From IMG/VR virus record IMGVR_UViG_3300042294_002093, positions 1 to 64,000 of that record: a DNA stretch of 64,000 bases; one strand, given 5' to 3'. The position numbers and the translations under genes are program-made. The notes beneath the pieces were generated by a model, which searched no databases, had not been told where the DNA came from, and saw only the letters and a program-made list of their open reading frames with translations. This DNA is from a virus (lineage: Duplodnaviria > Caudoviricetes). Shown in pieces: positions 290 to 39,208 of the stretch (its first letter is position 1; each line of letters begins with the position of its first letter).

Positions 290-311
290 TGTCAGCGATA
301 ACTGATAGAAT
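290..311 (+). promoter_or_regulatory. PafBC/RecA-NDp-type promoter (TGTCAG-N10-TAGAAT)
   Basis: matches TGTCRG-N10-TANNNT; followed by an A/C-rich leader and GAAAGG SD. Confidence 0.65.
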
Positions 312-345
312 TACAATTCAACAAACAAACGAAAGGTGGTCAGAA

Positions 346-534
346 ATGACTTATACTGTAAAACTAGAAACCTTTAATGGTTCTGTAAAAAAAATCAACC
401 TACCTTCTCAGGGTGCGGTTGCTCAATTCATAAACACCTACCCAAACCAATTACCCGTTGGCGTATCCGTAAAACTTTCCTGTGATGTCTTAGGTGTTAG
501 TGGCACACTAAGAGGAAAGGCATTGGTGAAATAA
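346..534 (+). CDS. hypothetical early protein
   Basis: ORF-track 289..534; start moved to ATG 346 after the GAAAGGTGG SD, because 289 lies inside the promoter. Confidence 0.7.
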   Translation: MTYTVKLETFNGSVKKINLPSQGAVAQFINTYPNQLPVGVSVKLSCDVLGVSGTLRGKALVK

Positions 535-683
535 TGATAAACACTTTAATGCGTTTTGACTGTGATGAGTGTAATGGTGTTGGTCTTATCTTTTGGGGTA
601 ATGACCTTGACTATGATGTAGAAAAATGCGACTGTAATGATTTCGCACTAGGAACTTTATTTACTACGAAAGAGGCTGACTAA
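534..683 (+). CDS. 49 aa Cys-rich (CxxC...CxC) zinc-binding microprotein
   Basis: manual translation MINTLMRFDCDECNGVGLIFWGNDLDYDVEKCDCN...; TAATG coupling at both ends; paralog of 1259..1423. Confidence 0.7.
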   Translation: MINTLMRFDCDECNGVGLIFWGNDLDYDVEKCDCNDFALGTLFTTKEAD

Positions 684-889
684 TGAAAACAATTACACAC
701 TCACTAAAATTCGTAACTGAATTAGATGAAACTAATGAAACTGCACAACGCTTACTTGCCTTACCGCAAGAAATGCAAATTGCTATGTTAGAAGGTATGC
801 TAAAAAATTTAGTTGTGCCTGCACTAAAACCAGTTATTGATGAATTAAACGCAGGCAATTCTTACGCAACGCTAAAGGTGGCTAACTAA
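683..889 (+). CDS. hypothetical protein
   Basis: ORF track; TAATG coupled. Confidence 0.7.
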   Translation: MKTITHSLKFVTELDETNETAQRLLALPQEMQIAMLEGMLKNLVVPALKPVIDELNAGNSYATLKVAN

Positions 890-1077
890 TGACTAGAAAA
901 GACTATATACAAACCGCTAATATCTTAAAAGAGTTTAGAGATGAAATTCCGCAAACTACTTATGAGGATATAGTAGATTTATTTTGCCAATGGTTCAAAT
1001 CAGATAATCCAAATTTTGACTATGCAAGATTTGAAACTGCTTGCGGTATTGATGAAATTGGTTTAATTCCAGCATAA
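889..1077 (+). CDS. hypothetical phage protein (MTRKDY...NPNFDYARF type)
   Basis: ORF track; TAATG coupled. Confidence 0.75.
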   Translation: MTRKDYIQTANILKEFRDEIPQTTYEDIVDLFCQWFKSDNPNFDYARFETACGIDEIGLIPA

Positions 1078-1083
1078 TAAAAA

Positions 1084-1111
1084 ATTCCTGAGCAAGAATA
1101 AAAACTGCTCA
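1084..1111 (+). ncRNA. H-type pseudoknot RNA motif, copy 1
   Basis: ATTC-CTGAGCAA-GAAT-aaaaac-TGCTCA; P1 ATTC/GAAT, P2 TGAGCA/TGCTCA. Confidence 0.65.
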
Positions 1112-1127
1112 AATTTTGGCCAGCGTG

Positions 1128-1148
1128 TCGTCCACAGGCTTATCCACA
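1128..1148 (+). promoter_or_regulatory. tandem DnaA-box pair (TCGTCCACA-ggc-TTATCCACA)
   Basis: one perfect TTATCCACA and one single-mismatch to the actinobacterial TTGTCCACA, 3 nt apart. Confidence 0.5.
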
Positions 1149-1158
1149 GGGTTTATGA

Positions 1159-1174
1159 TGTGATTAAAATCACT
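1159..1174. promoter_or_regulatory. CRP-type box (1 mismatch)
   Basis: TGTGAttaaaaTCACT. Confidence 0.5.
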
Positions 1175-1212
1175 CCCGAAATCTCCCTGAAAACCTGCTT
1201 GAGAGTGGCAAG

Positions 1213-1234
1213 TGTCGGTTGTATCTGATAGGAT
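1213..1234 (+). promoter_or_regulatory. PafBC/RecA-NDp-type promoter (TGTCGG-N10-TAGGAT)
   Basis: exact TGTCGG-N10-TANNNT match upstream of ATG 1259. Confidence 0.65.
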
Positions 1235-1258
1235 AAAGATATAAAGAAAGAAGGCAAA

Positions 1259-1423
1259 ATGGGTAAAGTAAAATCAACAATAATGGATATATTGGAATGC
1301 GATAGTTGCTATGGCTATGGTTGGCAATTCGCAGGAAATGATGTAGACTATGATGTATGGGCTTGCGAATGTAATCCTTACAATATCTCTGCTGATGAAC
1401 TAATAGATTGGAAACTAAACTAA
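1259..1423 (+). CDS. 54 aa Cys-rich zinc-binding microprotein
   Basis: manual translation ...ECDSCYGYGWQFAGNDVDYDVWACECNPY...; paralog of 534..683. Confidence 0.7.
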   Translation: MGKVKSTIMDILECDSCYGYGWQFAGNDVDYDVWACECNPYNISADELIDWKLN

Positions 1424-1632
1424 TGGAATATAACTATTCACTTACTACTTCCTATGATGGGAAGTTAATTCATACCCTGCGAGTTAGCGATATGCTAGAG
1501 GCAGTAGACGCTTGGACTAAATGTGTAGACTATGGCACAGCCAAAGAATACGCAACCTATAACTTGTCAGACCCAACAGGAAAGATGTATACTAAAACCT
1601 TCTACACCAACGGAGAGGTCGTAATTAAATAA
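1423..1632 (+). CDS. hypothetical protein
   Basis: ORF-track 1408..1632; start at the coupled ATG 1423. Confidence 0.7.
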   Translation: MEYNYSLTTSYDGKLIHTLRVSDMLEAVDAWTKCVDYGTAKEYATYNLSDPTGKMYTKTFYTNGEVVIK

Positions 1633-1919
1633 TGGGAAGCGTAACAGCAATAGGTTTAGCAGATACAACGCTAGACCTAGAAACACAATTACTTTATCAC
1701 TTAAAGGGTAATCATTATCCACCAGTCCCCGCAGAAATGGTTAAGCCTTGCATTGAAGCAATTGACGCTTACTATGATAAAGATTGGTCACGCATGATTG
1801 AAATGCCTATGGTTGGCGACTTTCAGATTTTGTATAAAGGCATGACACACGCACCTGCTAGTGCTATTGTAAGTCAGCACCACTTAGAGTGGTTCATTGA
1901 GCCTAGTGATGAGGAATAA
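1632..1919 (+). CDS. hypothetical phage protein (HLxxNHYPPVP motif)
   Basis: ORF track; TAATG coupled. Confidence 0.75.
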   Translation: MGSVTAIGLADTTLDLETQLLYHLKGNHYPPVPAEMVKPCIEAIDAYYDKDWSRMIEMPMVGDFQILYKGMTHAPASAIVSQHHLEWFIEPSDEE

Positions 1920-1920
1920 A

Positions 1921-2157
1921 ATGTCTGCTACAATAAACGATATGGAATTGATTCACGCAGATAGTTTAACACCAGATCAATTAATGATTGGTGATTTAAT
2001 AAAAATTGGTGATGATATAGTTGAAGTTACTTTTATTGAAAGTGATTCAACAGGAGACAACTATGACATACAAACAAAAAATGAGTTTGGTGAATTAGAA
2101 ATTACTCAACACTCATACACTGATTTAATTCCTCTCTACGTTTTTATTCAAGAATAA
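1921..2157 (+). CDS. hypothetical acidic beta-rich protein
   Basis: ORF-track 1897..2157; start after the GAGG SD. Confidence 0.65.
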   Translation: MSATINDMELIHADSLTPDQLMIGDLIKIGDDIVEVTFIESDSTGDNYDIQTKNEFGELEITQHSYTDLIPLYVFIQE

Positions 2158-2221
2158 TAATGCGTAGCCTTTCGGGGCCAGCCGATGTCCGCTTTGTCCG
2201 ATTTTTATTAATTACGTAGAC

Positions 2222-2250
2222 TTGTATTTTTTCCCTAAAAATGTTATACT
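2222..2250 (+). promoter_or_regulatory. sigma70-type promoter TTGTAT-N17-TATACT, probably leaderless
   Basis: extended -10 TG; ATG 5 nt downstream. Confidence 0.6.
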
Positions 2251-2255
2251 AAATT

Positions 2256-2978
2256 ATGACCCAATTAAAAAGATCTCATGACAGAAAGGTGGCTAACCTT
2301 GTCACAAAAAATGGAAAACAGGCCGCAATTGCAAACACGTTCGGTCTCCCTGCTGGAAAAGATTACTCATGCCCTGGTGCCACTAGTGTTTGTGAAAGCG
2401 TTTGCTACGCAGGAAAACTTGAAAAGTTATTCAAAGGAGTAAAGACTAACCTCCTACACAATTGGGAGTTATTGAAAGACGCAGACCATGAAACTATGGT
2501 TGGATTGTTGTATACGATGATTGCTGATTTCAGAAAAGATTGTGAAAAGAAAAATGCTCCATTGCTATTTCGTATTCATTGGGACGGTGATTTCTTTAAT
2601 GATACCTATACCAAAGCATGGAAAGAAGTTATAGAGTATCACAGTGATATAAAGTTTTGGGTATACACTAGAGTACACTCTGCAGCGGTAATGCTTAAGG
2701 GTATACCTAATCTATCTTTATACTATTCCACAGATAGTGAGAATAAAGAGATAGGTGTTAGTTTAAAGAAAGATCATGGTGTGCGCCTTGCATACCTTGC
2801 AAAGAATTTCGCCATAGGCCAAGCAGATATGAAAGAGTTATTTAATAAGCCTGGCGCTAAGTGTCCTGAAAACTTAAAGTCTATTCCACTTATCTCATCT
2901 AGTGGCTCCGCTTGCGTATCTTGCGGATTATGTGTATACTCTAAAGCAGACGTAGTATTTTCTGCGAGTAAGAAGTGA
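2256..2978 (+). CDS. GP88-like (radical-SAM-related, Cys-rich) phage protein
   Basis: CPGATSVCESVCYA motif, RIHWDGDFF, WVYTR and C-terminal CP...CxxCxxC pattern. Confidence 0.7.
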   Translation: MTQLKRSHDRKVANLVTKNGKQAAIANTFGLPAGKDYSCPGATSVCESVCYAGKLEKLFKGVKTNLLHNWELLKDADHETMVGLLYTMIADFRKDCEKKNAPLLFRIHWDGDFFNDTYTKAWKEVIEYHSDIKFWVYTRVHSAAVMLKGIPNLSLYYSTDSENKEIGVSLKKDHGVRLAYLAKNFAIGQADMKELFNKPGAKCPENLKSIPLISSSGSACVSCGLCVYSKADVVFSASKK

Positions 2979-3078
2979 TAATGGAGATATTAGCAATAGT
3001 ATTAGTAGTTATATTTATGCTGTTTATGTTTGACTCCCCTTTTGGGTAGGGGTGTCCTAAATGTCCGATTTGTCCTAA

Positions 3079-3094
3079 TGTGATGTATCTCACA
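3079..3094. promoter_or_regulatory. CRP-type box (perfect)
   Basis: TGTGAtgtatcTCACA upstream of TTGTAT-N17-TAGACT (3135-3163). Confidence 0.65.
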
Positions 3095-3200
3095 GAGAAA
3101 TAATCTCAAAATGTGAGAAATCTAAGAAATAGATTTGTATTTTTATCCAAAAAATGTTAGACTTAAACAGTAAGAAAAAACCAAACAAAGGAGAAACACA

Positions 3201-3365
3201 ATGTCCGTAGCAACCGCAACATACAAGGTAGGCGACCTCTACACAACACAAAAGTCAAAGGTAGTAGGAACTATCGTGGAAATCACACCACAGGCAAATG
3301 GTAATGTCCGTGTTAAGTTAGATGTAAATGGTTCATACCGATACACAACTTGGACGGCAAAGTAA
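3201..3365 (+). CDS. 54 aa SH3/KOW-like beta microprotein
   Basis: manual translation MSVATATYKVGDLYTTQKSKVVGTIVEI...; AAGGAG SD; paralog of 3983..4153. Confidence 0.75.
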   Translation: MSVATATYKVGDLYTTQKSKVVGTIVEITPQANGNVRVKLDVNGSYRYTTWTAK

Positions 3366-3384
3366 TCTTAGCCTAGTGGCTAAA

Positions 3385-3411
3385 GTCCTGAGCATGACCA
3401 AAAACTGCTCA
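3385..3411 (+). ncRNA. pseudoknot motif, copy 2 (preceded by a TTAGCC/GGCTAA hairpin)
   Basis: GTC-CTGAGCAT-GAC-caaaaac-TGCTCA. Confidence 0.65.
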
Positions 3412-3460
3412 ACTTAATACCCCCATCAAACCCACTAAACAGAAACGGAAACAAAAACAA

Positions 3461-3883
3461 ATGGCAAGAGGCAAAGCAATAAATGTAAAAATCGCTACAC
3501 CAAAGGTTATTACAGCCCTAACAAATAAGTTAGCAGAACTAGAGGCTAACTACAAAAAGCAAGACGAGAACGAAGCAAAGTATAACGAAGCACTAGAGGC
3601 TTGGAAAAAAGAATTATTTACTTTCGCTATCGCTAACATAGATAAGGCTCAAAATGTGCGAACCAACTATCGCCAATGGTCAAGCAACCTTAATGTTGAT
3701 TTTGATTTAACAGTTAAGGAAGGCGAGTTCCCTGCTGAGCCAACTAGGGATTTTGAGCAAATCCATCAGCACACTTATCGTGAGATGAAAGAGGAAATCT
3801 CTAACGCTATCCGTATCCTTTTAATGACGGACGAGGAAACAGTTAGCACTAGCACCTATAACGCTATTGCTCGTTATCTTTAA
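3461..3883 (+). CDS. hypothetical coiled-coil protein
   Basis: ORF track, 140 aa. Confidence 0.8.
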   Translation: MARGKAINVKIATPKVITALTNKLAELEANYKKQDENEAKYNEALEAWKKELFTFAIANIDKAQNVRTNYRQWSSNLNVDFDLTVKEGEFPAEPTRDFEQIHQHTYREMKEEISNAIRILLMTDEETVSTSTYNAIARYL

Positions 3884-3982
3884 TTAGATAAATAGGTGGG
3901 GAAGGGTATTTGACTTCCCCCCTAAAAAATGTTAGACTAAGTAAGTAATGACCCCAAACCCAAACAGAAAGGCAAGACCCAA

Positions 3983-4153
3983 ATGACACTAGGCGGATAC
4001 ACATACCAAATCGGTGATTTATTCACCACAAGCAAAACAGGTATCACAGGTAGAATTGTAAAGTTCTCACCTATTAACTCTAAGACCACTAGAGTATCCT
4101 TACAGTTAGCAAATGGCGCAAGACGCCTTGCTATGGTAAGCACAACTAAATAA
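3983..4153 (+). CDS. 56 aa SH3/KOW-like beta microprotein
   Basis: manual translation MTLGGYTYQIGDLFTTSKTGITGRIVKF...; GAAAGG SD; own promoter TTGACT...TAGACT. Confidence 0.75.
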   Translation: MTLGGYTYQIGDLFTTSKTGITGRIVKFSPINSKTTRVSLQLANGARRLAMVSTTK

Positions 4154-4157
4154 TAAA

Positions 4158-4186
4158 AACTCCTGAGCATGAGTTAAAACTGCTCA
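4158..4186 (+). ncRNA. pseudoknot motif, copy 3
   Basis: AACTC-CTGAGCAT-GAGTT-aaaac-TGCTCA. Confidence 0.7.
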
Positions 4187-4206
4187 CCTATAGGATCTTT
4201 GACAAA

Positions 4207-4228
4207 TGTCAGTGGCCGATAGTATAAT
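4207..4228 (+). promoter_or_regulatory. PafBC/RecA-NDp-type promoter (TGTCAG-N10-TATAAT), also with TTGACA at 4199
   Basis: exact spacing match. Confidence 0.65.
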
Positions 4229-4262
4229 TAAATTAACCAAACAAACAGAAAGAAGCCCCACA

Positions 4263-4742
4263 ATGTCAACTAACATTAATGACGCCGTAACAATTGATAA
4301 ACTAGAAGTACCGTACAACCCAAATCTTCTTGTAACATATAAAGCCATTGCTGGTACATATGCTGCTCCTGAAGAGCCAACTTATTTAACATCCAAGGTA
4401 ACAGACCTTGAATGGGAACTACACAGTGCACGTGCTCGTGAAGAAGCGCTACGTAGTCTTCAAGGAACAGTGAGACAACTTGAAGACAATATTGTAGAAT
4501 GGTATGACCCTAACTATTCTAAAGAAGAAGTTCTTGTAGCGCTATGCGAACTCTTTGGTATTAATCCAGTCAAAGAAATTGAAGTACAAGGAACTGTTTC
4601 ATTCAGTGGAACAATCAGTGTACCAATGTCAGAGATTGCAGACTTTGATTTAAGTAATGTCACGATTGATGTTGATTTAAGTTCATATGAGTATGACGCT
4701 GACTTAAATGTAGACGAGGTTTCTTTGGAAGACCACTACTGA
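4263..4742 (+). CDS. hypothetical acidic protein
   Basis: ORF-track 4206..4742; start moved downstream of the promoter and SD. Confidence 0.75.
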   Translation: MSTNINDAVTIDKLEVPYNPNLLVTYKAIAGTYAAPEEPTYLTSKVTDLEWELHSARAREEALRSLQGTVRQLEDNIVEWYDPNYSKEEVLVALCELFGINPVKEIEVQGTVSFSGTISVPMSEIADFDLSNVTIDVDLSSYEYDADLNVDEVSLEDHY

Positions 4743-4793
4743 GATCTGTAGCAACCGCTGCAGGGACCGTTTAAATTTGATAGGGGGCTATCA

Positions 4794-4821
4794 AAATCCT
4801 GGCCATGATTTAAAACTGGCC
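4794..4821 (+). ncRNA. pseudoknot motif, copy 4 (covariant)
   Basis: AAATC-CTGGCCAT-GATTT-aaaac-TGGCC; P2 changed to GGCCA/TGGCC. Confidence 0.7.
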
Positions 4822-4878
4822 TATTTTTTATTTAAAAAAGCCAGCCACAAAAATCTAAAATGTCAAACAACACGCCGA

Positions 4879-4894
4879 TGTGTTTACGATCACA
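4879..4894. promoter_or_regulatory. CRP-type box (1 mismatch)
   Basis: TGTGTttacgaTCACA. Confidence 0.5.
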
Positions 4895-4942
4895 TAATAA
4901 AAATGTCCGAATTGTCCATGTTTAACTATCTGGATTTGCATT

Positions 4943-4964
4943 TGTCAGCCTGTCCTGTTATACT
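4943..4964 (+). promoter_or_regulatory. PafBC/RecA-NDp-type promoter (TGTCAG-N10-TATACT)
   Basis: exact spacing match upstream of the DUF932 gene. Confidence 0.65.
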
Positions 4965-4995: not shown

Positions 4996-6012
4996 ATGGC
5001 ACATGACCTAGAAACACAAAACGGAAAGACATCTTTTGCATCTTTTCGTGAACCTGCATGGCATGGATTGGGTACTGTCTTTACAGAAGAAAAAACAACC
5101 GTAGAAATGTTGGAAGCAGCAAATCTTAATGGTTGGAATGTTCGTCTTGAAGATTTGGAAACCCCAACACACTTAACAAGCGACAAGGCATATCAATATG
5201 TTTTGCGTACTAACCCAACAGACAAAACACAAACAGACATTTTAGGCGTTGTTGGTGAGCGCTACCATGTTTTACAAAATGAAGATTTATTTTCATTTGG
5301 TGATAACATTCTTGATGGTGGCGGACGCTGGGAAACTGCTGGTTCAATCAAGGGTGGGCGTGTAGTATTTGGCGCTCTTGCTCTTGAGCGTGAAACAGTT
5401 CTTGACCCTAATGGTGTTGCGGATAAGGTAAAAACTTATTTGCTGATTAACACATCACATGACGGTTCAATCGCTATTCAAGCAAGCATTACACCTGTTC
5501 GTGTTGTTTGCGCCAACACTCTCAATCTTGCGTTAGGTGCTAAGAAAAAGAAGAATGGCATCAAACAATCATTCAAGATTCGCCACACACAAACTGCAAA
5601 TGGTAAAGTGCAGATTGCTCGTGAAACTCTTGGTCTTGCTAATGCTTACATGGACGAATTTGATATTATGGCTAAGGCTATGATTGAAAAAGAAGTTTCT
5701 GCTAAGCAATTTAACGACATTATTCTTACAGCGTATGCAAAACCTGAAAAAGATACTAAGGGTGCGCTAAAGAAATGGGAAAACAAAATAGATGTTATTA
5801 ACGACATCTACACAGGCGAGTTTAATGGTATGATTGCTAATACTGCTTGGGGTGCTTTCAATGCACTAACTGAGCGTTTAGATTGGTATCGTTCTGCTCG
5901 TGGTGGTTCTAACGAATCTATTCTCGCATCTGCTAGTGGATTTGACCCTGCAATTAACGCAGAGAAAAATCGTTTGCTAAAAGTTGTGCAGAATGTTATG
6001 CAAATTGCATAG
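4996..6012 (+). CDS. DUF932 / TIGR03299-like phage-plasmid protein
   Basis: MAHDLE...REPAWHGLG, ETAGSIKGGRVVF, NTSHDGS, TPVRVVCANTL motifs; AGAAGGA SD before ATG 4996. Confidence 0.85.
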   Translation: MAHDLETQNGKTSFASFREPAWHGLGTVFTEEKTTVEMLEAANLNGWNVRLEDLETPTHLTSDKAYQYVLRTNPTDKTQTDILGVVGERYHVLQNEDLFSFGDNILDGGGRWETAGSIKGGRVVFGALALERETVLDPNGVADKVKTYLLINTSHDGSIAIQASITPVRVVCANTLNLALGAKKKKNGIKQSFKIRHTQTANGKVQIARETLGLANAYMDEFDIMAKAMIEKEVSAKQFNDIILTAYAKPEKDTKGALKKWENKIDVINDIYTGEFNGMIANTAWGAFNALTERLDWYRSARGGSNESILASASGFDPAINAEKNRLLKVVQNVMQIA

Positions 6013-6170: not shown

Positions 6171-6234
6171 TTTTTGAAAAAATTCGATTACGAAGAGTCT
6201 TGACTTTTCCCTAAATTTCTGCAATAATTAATAC

Positions 6235-37519: not shown

Positions 37520-39208
37520 TTACTTCTTTTTGTATCCTGTAGGACATACAGGTGCAACGGCTGTAACCTTTTTAGTTAACTTACCCTTTACACATGTGAT
37601 TGTTTTCTTAGGAGCAATCATTAATTGAAGTTGCTCAATTTGCTTTGTGATAGATGCAATAAGTGCTACGATTCCATTAAGAACCTCAGCATTGCTAATT
37701 GCGCCATCAGCAATCTTGTAAGATACAGTTTTTGCTGCATCAGTTGCTACATAGGCTGGAAGATCTACGATCATATTGTATGCACCATTGACATTGCCAA
37801 CAGTAAACTTGTATGTCTTTACTCCTTGAGCAAATGTATCTGCTGATGTTGGAGCAGCAATTGCTGTTAATCCACCACCAGAAATGGCAACGCCACTTCC
37901 AACTGTAGAGGTATCTGCAACCTTTGCGCCATTAATATCAGTAGCAGAGATTGTAAGTGTAGCAATTTCTCCTGGAACATAAGAGTTCTTATCGAGAGAT
38001 GCTGTGTACTTGTTTACGCCTAGACCACATGCTGCAACAAACTCGTTTGAGTAAATTTCAGACAGGTCTGATAATACATGCTTGATTCTTACAATAGAAG
38101 AACCAGATGTAGCAGCGCATGTCCAACCACCAGTTTGTACTGCTGTAGCGGATGAAGATCCACCTACAGAAACTGCAGTAACTTGAGAAGTATACTTTGT
38201 GGTATCAGCAGTTGGAGTAATTCCAGCCAATTGATTACCAGCAGCATCCTTAACTACAAAGTCATAAGTTCCTGTGCGTGTTCCATTAGATAATGCAATG
38301 TCAACACCTGTTACGGAAATTGATGCTGCACGACCTGAGAATGCAATACTTTTAGTTGCAAGAGTTACACCATTAAAAGTAATTGTAATTGTTGTATTTA
38401 CTGGCTTGTTTTCATTTGCAGTTCCTTGAACTACATATAAAACTCCAGAAGTTCCTGTTTTGGCTGCTGTATTAACCTGTGTGCTTGGAGCAGCATCCCA
38501 TGCTACTACCGCACCATTAGTTGCAGTTGCTTGAATTACACCGCTAGTTGATAGTTGTGCTGCATAAGCATCCATTGTACGAACGTTTACGTATCCCGTT
38601 CCTGCATTAGTAACGCTTGTAGCAGTTGCAACATCTACACTAGATGTTAGTGTTCCCGCTGTTGCTGAATCTTGTACACGAACATAAGAGTCTGCTACAG
38701 ACAAAACGTTTGTTTTTACAGTTGTTCCAGCATAGATAGTTTTAATATCAATAGTAGAAGTAGTTGATCCAACTTTCTTCTTTTGTGTTACCGTTACGGT
38801 ACCTGCACCATTAACAGTCAACTTAACATTTGTTGGCAGTGTAACTGCTGTTGATGTTGTTGCTGTAAATGTAAATGTCTTACCTAAATTAGTAAGTGTT
38901 GCTCCCGTAGGGTTTGATCCTGCTGCTGTGTAATCAGTAAATGTTGCTGGACCAGAAATTTCTAGCGATAGATTGTCGTCTGCAGTAGCAGCCAAGGTAT
39001 CGCTTGTTGTTAATGCAACAATTGCGTTAACTCCAGCCTCTGCCTTGGTTGTGTCTGTTAATACGGTTACACCACGTGCACCAGCAGCAAGTGAATCAGA
39101 TAATACATATCCGTTTGTCACTGCAGCAGAAGCCTGTGGAATTGCAACCAAAAATGTGCTTGATACGGCTGCAGCCATAACTAAAGCGATTTTTTTGAAT
39201 GAATTCAT
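37520..39208 (-). CDS. host-like S-layer / Ig-like surface protein with an acI-type C-terminal motif
   Basis: MNSFKKIAL signal, Thr/Ala/Val-rich body, C-terminal KKTITCVKGKLTKKVTAVAPVCPTGYKKK. Confidence 0.75.
   Translation of the reverse strand: MNSFKKIALVMAAAVSSTFLVAIPQASAAVTNGYVLSDSLAAGARGVTVLTDTTKAEAGVNAIVALTTSDTLAATADDNLSLEISGPATFTDYTAAGSNPTGATLTNLGKTFTFTATTSTAVTLPTNVKLTVNGAGTVTVTQKKKVGSTTSTIDIKTIYAGTTVKTNVLSVADSYVRVQDSATAGTLTSSVDVATATSVTNAGTGYVNVRTMDAYAAQLSTSGVIQATATNGAVVAWDAAPSTQVNTAAKTGTSGVLYVVQGTANENKPVNTTITITFNGVTLATKSIAFSGRAASISVTGVDIALSNGTRTGTYDFVVKDAAGNQLAGITPTADTTKYTSQVTAVSVGGSSSATAVQTGGWTCAATSGSSIVRIKHVLSDLSEIYSNEFVAACGLGVNKYTASLDKNSYVPGEIATLTISATDINGAKVADTSTVGSGVAISGGGLTAIAAPTSADTFAQGVKTYKFTVGNVNGAYNMIVDLPAYVATDAAKTVSYKIADGAISNAEVLNGIVALIASITKQIEQLQLMIAPKKTITCVKGKLTKKVTAVAPVCPTGYKKK

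Follow-up and report, generated by a model that had tools for sequence, protein, structure and literature searches.

Can a phage place its early genes under the DNA-damage activator of its host? The question is raised by the first 64 kb (positions 1 to 64,000; hereafter, the window) of the viral record IMGVR_UViG_3300042294_002093, a linear genome of the class Caudoviricetes that comprises 111,082 bases, is rated 99% complete and has a guanine-cytosine (GC) content of 35.2%. An initial annotation had proposed that four promoters near the start of the window wire early phage genes to the host activator PafBC. We scanned the window for the pattern that these promoters share, TGTCRG-N10-TANNNT, and found it exactly four times, always on the + strand. 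The sites proved exact in their coordinates and identical in spacing. Each of them is intergenic and is followed, as had been described, by a leader (A-rich in every case), a Shine-Dalgarno (SD) sequence and a gene, with start codons at 346, 1259, 4263 and 4996, the last belonging to a gene of the DUF932 family. The four promoters are composed as follows (spacers in nucleotides, nt):

Promoter 1, 283 to 311, + strand: site 1 (TGTCAGCGATAACTGATAGAAT) at 290 to 311; -35-like TAGAAA at 283 to 288 (4/6 matches), box TGTCAG at 290 to 295, extended -10 TG at 303 to 304, -10 element TAGAAT at 306 to 311.
Promoter 2, 1205 to 1234, + strand: site 2 (TGTCGGTTGTATCTGATAGGAT) at 1213 to 1234; weak -35-like GTGGCA at 1205 to 1210 (4/6 matches), box TGTCGG at 1213 to 1218, extended -10 TG, -10 element TAGGAT at 1229 to 1234.
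Promoter 3, 4199 to 4228, + strand: site 3 (TGTCAGTGGCCGATAGTATAAT) at 4207 to 4228; perfect -35 TTGACA at 4199 to 4204, 18-nt spacer with the box TGTCAG at 4207 to 4212 (TGTCAGTGGC), perfect -10 element TATAAT at 4223 to 4228.
Promoter 4, 4935 to 4964, + strand: site 4 (TGTCAGCCTGTCCTGTTATACT) at 4943 to 4964; -35-like TTTGCA/TTGCAT at 4935 to 4941, box TGTCAG at 4943 to 4948, extended -10 TG, -10 element TATACT at 4959 to 4964.

An extended -10 TG is thus present in three of the four promoters. We take all four sites to be genuine early promoters.

Box and spacing are the same as in the PafBC system, since they equal its published consensus. PMC8635444 gives the consensus derived from chromatin immunoprecipitation sequencing of PafBC as tGTCgg(N10)tA(N3)T, which agrees with the initial assignment of the motif to PafBC (RecA-NDp). 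The same paper locates the box at -23 to -28, has the helix-turn-helix (HTH) domain of PafB read the GTC triplet, and describes promoters without a -35 element, where PafBC occupies the space that separates the DNA from sigma region 4. All four window sites carry the GTC core, as TGTCAG or TGTCGG, and all four keep the exact 10-nt gap to a tA(N3)T -10 element; spacing scans peak only at N10. The phage promoters resemble those described for Mycobacterium and other actinobacteria in their TGTCRG box, their 10-nt gap to a TANNNT -10 element and their actinobacterial setting, and a T-rich or A-rich base directly 5' of the box is common to both. The position of the box, -28 to -23, is also alike, as inferred from the phage -10 element only. 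The two groups differ in what they drive, the phage promoters preceding DUF932 and a number of small genes without known function rather than repair genes. PMC11804915 describes activation of PafBC by single-stranded DNA (ssDNA) bound at its WYL domains, in line with the initial description of a WYL-domain activator triggered by single-stranded nucleic acid. Among the literature matches listed, we found no account of PafBC-type phage promoters, so the impression that this use of PafBC by a phage had not been described before holds within that set. PMC12848934 cites work tying pafBC to mycobacteriophage resistance.

Spacing and conservation in related phages

Shuffled versions of the window contained the motif 1.03 times on average (standard deviation 1.07), and 4 of 100 shuffles reached a count of four. 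On its own, the window count is only borderline. We nevertheless consider the motif to be more than chance, because spacing and relatives decide this point and the window count does not. Across the whole record, the pattern occurs five times on the forward strand and once on the reverse strand, versus two and zero for the backwards control. When the spacing was varied from N4 to N21, these five plus one matches at N10 compared with zero to three at any other spacing.

A search with the DUF932 protein retrieved 367 related stretches from the viral collection, of which we chose 80 loci (922,597 bases; 89-100% protein identity). In these loci, N10 yielded 548 matches on the gene strand versus 15 on the opposite strand. 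The remaining spacings gave at most 62 matches, except for N16 with 171, which represents a second TANNNT register. The predicted enrichment over controls was therefore evident in the relatives, shuffles alone being borderline.

For a test of orthology, promoters were chosen by the orthology of the gene behind them and not by the motif, and distinct upstream regions were counted. The strict motif was found before DUF932 in 57 of 64 regions, and TGTCNN in 62 of the 64. It was likewise present upstream of the orthologues of the 346 gene (23/32 regions) and of the 4263 gene (6/6), and upstream of only 1/10 for the 1259 gene. Aligning the 64 DUF932 upstream regions revealed that TGTC and the -10 element are nearly invariant and the 10-nt spacer between them is variable; a -35 TTG is also highly conserved there. 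Because TGTC is kept before DUF932 (in the 62 regions above) while the spacer varies, the box is, by this comparison, under selection. The consensus of the family, built from 385 distinct instances, reads A-(a/t)-(A/T)-TGTCAG-T…TG-n-TAnAAT; box position 5 is A in 93% of instances, unlike the g of the mycobacterial PafBC consensus. Downstream leaders are alike.

Elsewhere in the record, the match at 82815 (+) was rejected as a promoter, as it lies on the non-coding strand of late genes, and so was that at 73824 (-), which falls at the start of a giant open reading frame (ORF). A TGTCAG-N14-TATACT sequence at about 108615 was not counted as a promoter.

Candidate hosts and their PafBC-type promoters

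Which bacteria might supply PafBC to this phage? The record carries a WhiB gene (22708 to 22992, 45.2 bits), and its nearest cultured relatives are Streptomyces phages of the Stanwilliamsviridae (52-55% identity in DnaE and about 51% in DUF932); on these two grounds, we assign it to the actinophages. It shares with Jay2Jay, BillNye and Blueeyedbeauty of that family an arrangement in which small genes, together with DUF932, form a block near a genome end. Eighteen metatranscriptome runs contain 5-9% of the sampled words, and contigs from four runs of four studies, with lake water or freshwater labels, align with parts of the region at identities of 90-99%. Pieces of the phage or of close relatives are thus present in RNA libraries from lakes and freshwater. 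These contigs are neutral on promoter activity, because they lack starts, strand and level and the libraries may include DNA. Together with the 367 related stretches, they indicate that the clade is common in lakes. We conclude that this is an uncultured, lytic-type lake actinophage and not a mycobacteriophage; the mycobacterial host assumed at the outset does not agree with a record of 35% GC, with the lake and freshwater RNA pieces or with Streptomyces phages as nearest cultured kin.

In a phylum sample of 301 genomes, WhiB was detected in 165 and WYL was absent from 44, and the two sets, compared by hand, do not overlap. A WYL ORF was accordingly found in 165/165 of the WhiB-bearing genomes (154/154 when 11 unpublished genomes are excluded). 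As candidate hosts, we used all genomes with sizes of 1.0-1.5 Mb, 29 in number, from a class sample that comprised 401 genomes and was centred on a large WhiB-rich genome. The GC content of the ten measured is 46-49%. On size, GC and class, we take these small actinomycete genomes to be acI-like lake actinobacteria, and we infer that they represent the host group of the phage.

All 29 candidates encode WhiB homologues and WYL proteins, and 25/29 have a pafBC-like tandem pair of ORFs of about 300-345 amino acids. In one of them, G409, the first ORF of the pair combines WYL and WCX, the second HTH_PafC (113.8 bits) and WYL, and tatC follows, which is the mycobacterial pafB-pafC-tat order. The strict motif stands at most 300 nt upstream of recA in all 26 candidates in which recA was found (of 29). 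The box is TGTCAG in 19 and TGTCGG in 7 of these, most commonly within TGTCAGTGGCGCCTGCTACCTT, so that TGTCAG is preferred here as it is in the phage family. Immediately behind the motif comes a LexA-like box. Phage promoter 3 agrees with this commonest recA promoter in the first ten bases of its box region. In motif-rich regions of five candidates (202 kb), N10 gave 27 matches versus 0-3 at spacings of N5 to N16. A random 400 kb drawn from ten small genomes contained no strict N10 match; the matches of these genomes cluster elsewhere, 9 of the 13 in G409 lying within 48 kb. The flanks agree as well, A-(a/t)-(A/T)-TGTCAG-T in the phage versus A-n-T-TGTC-n-G-T in the host-like promoters. The two sets differ in their leaders, which are about 30 nt long with an SD sequence in the phage; 18 of the 27 host-like promoters, by contrast, seem to lack a leader, many of them lying directly before start codons. 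A -35-like hexamer with at least 4/6 matches is present in only 3 of the 27. Should these candidates represent the host group, the host would probably carry both a pafBC-like pair (25/29) and the recA motif (26/26), as had been expected.

The same genomes bear on the possibility that another host DNA-binding protein, a different WYL or HTH regulator, reads the box in place of PafBC. The small genomes do encode a third WYL ORF, of about 735-800 amino acids, and the phage early region has more conserved boxes, as if several regulators were active there. Yet it is exactly GTC that the PafB HTH reads at this position, according to PMC8635444, and it is recA, the classic PafBC target, that the box precedes in the candidate hosts. 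We consider a different host regulator improbable.

The genomes of at most 1.6 Mb in the phylum sample were dropped as host proxies, as none has a WhiB gene. Lacking WhiB, they are not the type of actinobacterium that the phage infects, and we therefore do not count them as evidence against PafBC. Among these proxies, WYL was missing in 21/25, the motif was not enriched, and the box stood before recA in 0/27. G024, which belongs to this set, encodes two WYL proteins in tandem and carries TGTCNN-N10-TANNNT before recA, ruvA and five other genes, with no clear spacing peak; the strict matches in G179, G205, G244 and G024 fall mostly within genes. Among WhiB-bearing genomes of intermediate size, 12 of 32 loci were assessed and 20 left out; TGTCNN-N10-TANNNT was present before recA in 8 of the 12.

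PafBC-type promoters are grouped in one chromosomal region of several small genomes (G409:C1:462000-510000, G547:C1:411000-433000 and G531:C1:411000-442000). Separately, three contigs of the metagenome-assembled genome G001, which bears an Acidimicrobiaceae label, have 37% GC and belong to this phage clade (C69, C75 and C102), one of them with four PafBC-type sites in 2 kb. G001 was rejected as a host, its own DNA having 68-69% GC versus 37% in the phage-like contig, and was treated as a case of mis-binning; the phage-like contigs are probably a binning artefact. The phage Hsp20, compared with the 301 genomes, matched only a phage-like G001 contig, apart from two weak matches, one in other sequence of G001 (30% identity) and one in G270. 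An Atlas look-up of the 562-amino-acid protein at 37520 to 39208 returned viral clusters only.

What may read the box

We lean towards an explanation in which the host RNA polymerase and the host PafBC read the box; in this member of the clade, this would add to a basal mode that depends on the -35 hexamers. Each promoter joins a -10 element of the housekeeping type to a PafBC-type '-26 element', TGTCRG, that precedes it by exactly 10 nt. By sigma adaptation, the promoters would be read jointly by the host PafB/PafC heterodimer and by host RNA polymerase carrying the primary sigma factor. PafBC would presumably bind the phage sites, and transcription of the early units would rise once it is loaded with ssDNA. 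Because the four promoters keep -35-like hexamers, they probably have a basal activity independent of PafBC, and PafBC would then enhance transcription instead of switching it on and off. The ssDNA may stem from phage replication, from injection or from ultraviolet (UV) damage to the host; that the phage's own incoming DNA acts as the trigger, as had been suggested, is speculative.

Several observations weigh against a role of PafBC. Published PafBC promoters lack a -35 element, whereas in each of the four window promoters a -35-like hexamer lies 17-18 nt from the -10 element, with scores of 4, 4, 6 and 4 of 6, and the promoter at 4207 is a perfect TTGACA-N18-TATAAT. The GP88 gene has a consensus promoter in this phage and the box in 23/59 distinct upstream regions of relatives, and the box occurs in 28/59 and 17/55 such regions for the 3201 and 3983 genes, respectively. 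Orthologous genes therefore swap between the box class and ordinary consensus promoters, so the box can be dispensed with. The motif has 2, 0 and 0 matches, versus 5, 2 and 2 in the control, in three Streptomyces phages among the cultured relatives, the hosts of which are PafBC-bearing. Unlike in this phage, the motif is not enriched in early regions of the Stanwilliamsviridae, and the 8.6-kb early block of Jay2Jay contains no match. The search for a host adds to these points. The phage WhiB, compared with genome contigs, led only to five short phage-like contigs in metagenome-assembled genomes of four unrelated taxa, and hence to no host. Its identity to WhiB genes is 26-40% everywhere and therefore gives no pointer to one; in this respect, the small genomes (28-40%) do not stand out from other actinobacteria. 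Comparing 37 phage early proteins with the motif-rich candidate-host regions produced no match, and the GC content of the phage, 35%, differs from the 46-49% of the candidates. Of the initial claim that early genes are wired to the host PafBC, the motif, its spacing and its agreement with the PafBC consensus stand, but the -35-like hexamers had been overlooked, and the evidence on hosts comes from candidates.

The -35 hexamers can be compared with those of the relatives. At least 4/6 matches to a -35 hexamer were present in 141 of 361 distinct promoters of the box class, and 3/6 or fewer in the other 220. For comparison, 463/2394 random TANNNT sites and 21/23 promoters of another class (a consensus -35 with AAAATGnTAnAnT) reached 4/6. 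In the 220 family promoters without a usable -35, something must replace it. This count bears on the view that nothing reads the box at all, and that these are ordinary primary-sigma promoters with TGTCAG carried along in copied promoter-leader cassettes. Such a view would fit the -35-like hexamers at all four sites and the extended -10 at three, the similarity of the downstream leaders, the exchange of promoter cassettes between orthologous genes and the borderline window count. It is difficult to reconcile with those 220 promoters, with a TGTC that is nearly invariant next to a diverging spacer, and with a strand bias of 548 versus 15 and a sharp spacing peak, and we give it little credence.

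Alternatively, the box could be read by a factor that the phage itself encodes, either an activator that stands in for contact with the -35, as MotA/AsiA do at middle promoters of phage T4, or a spacer-bound repressor that silences the early units later; the likeness to PafBC would then be convergent or a form of mimicry. PMC8635444 itself draws a likeness between PafBC promoters and T4 middle promoters, and a box about 30 nt upstream combined with a -10 element is the known build of the latter. T4 middle promoters (a MotA box at -30 and a -10 element, used through sigma appropriation by AsiA/MotA) share with the promoters described here a short box between -35 and -10 and a standard -10 element. 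In T4, the factors are phage-encoded, whereas the box here is the host's PafBC sequence. The record contains no homologue of WYL, a PafC-type HTH or sigma region 4, and no match to AsiA (PF09010); MotA was not searched for. There is room for an unrecognised DNA-binding protein among the many small genes of unknown function in the block, and, as cultured relatives lack the motif, it would suit an invention specific to the clade. Given usable -35 hexamers with spacers of 17-18 nt, a protein bound in the spacer would more likely repress. However, TGTCRG would have had to arise independently at exactly N10 in an actinophage, which would be a striking coincidence, and an identical box with its flanks is in use by the candidate hosts. 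In addition, genes with consensus promoters here carry the box in relatives, a misfit with a strict early-then-middle cascade. We regard a phage-encoded factor as rather unlikely.

Host PafBC as the reader leads to a broader picture that we offer tentatively, with belief and doubt nearly in balance: a virulent and very abundant clade of lake actinophages may have wired its early genes to the host's ssDNA alarm, PafBC, with dual promoters (a basal -35 mode and a PafBC mode) in the member studied here. If true, sigma adaptation would for the first time be seen to control a phage regulon, and ssDNA, whether it arises from injection, phage replication, host DNA breakdown or UV damage, would give the phage a timer or booster of its own. 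In cells, PafBC is known to activate the response to DNA damage; with early phage genes behind PafBC-type promoters, this host alarm would become a phage switch. The signature may also help to link uncultured phages to PafBC-bearing actinobacterial hosts.

Early genes and neighbouring elements

The window is organised as small + strand genes over the first 17 kb, followed by a - strand block that extends to its end and encodes terminase, DnaB, primase and a DnaE-type polymerase. The following genes lie behind the four promoters:

346 to 1077, + strand: four small ORFs behind promoter 1 (346-534, 534-683, 683-889 and 889-1077); no Pfam or PHROG family.
1259 to 2157, + strand: four small ORFs behind promoter 2 (1259-1423, 1423-1632, 1632-1919 and 1921-2157); no family match.
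4263 to 4742, + strand: ORF of 159 amino acids behind promoter 3; no family match.
4996 to 6012, + strand: DUF932 gene of 338 amino acids behind promoter 4; PF06067 (163.2 bits) and phrog_1221, of unknown function.

Besides DUF932, the nine proteins encoded behind these promoters thus had no Pfam or PHROG match, and a Megablast search of the early region against the phage collection returned no match. The ORFs at 534-683 and 1259-1423, one each behind promoters 1 and 2, encode paralogous small Cys-rich proteins (CxxC…CxC).

A second class of promoters is present at 2221-2249, 3134-3163, 3909-3939 and 6190-6220. Its members consist of TTGACT or TTGTAT, a gap of 17-18 nt and TGtTAGACT or TGtTATACT, with a common ccctaaaaaa spacer, and they drive GP88 and two paralogous genes of 54 and 56 amino acids.

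Further elements recur around the early promoters. Palindromes of the CRP/GlxR type, TGTGA-N6-TCACA, lie upstream of early promoters at 246-261 (perfect), about 1158-1176, 3078-3096 and 4879-4897, and relatives retain the TCACA half that lies before the DUF932 promoter. Direct repeats of the form ATGTCCG…TGTCC(G), 9 bp from start to start, were observed at 2186-2203, 3052-3076 and 4904-4919, about 55-70 nt upstream of both promoter classes; this direct-repeat element, ATGTCCGATTT, is conserved before DUF932 in relatives. Directly after gene ends, an element TCCTGAGCATGA…AAAACTGCTCA recurs at 1086-1112, 3387-3412, 4160-4186, about 4797 and about 6035. Finally, the gap before promoter 2 holds, at 1127-1150, a perfect DnaA-box-like TTATCCACA and a second TCCACA nearby.

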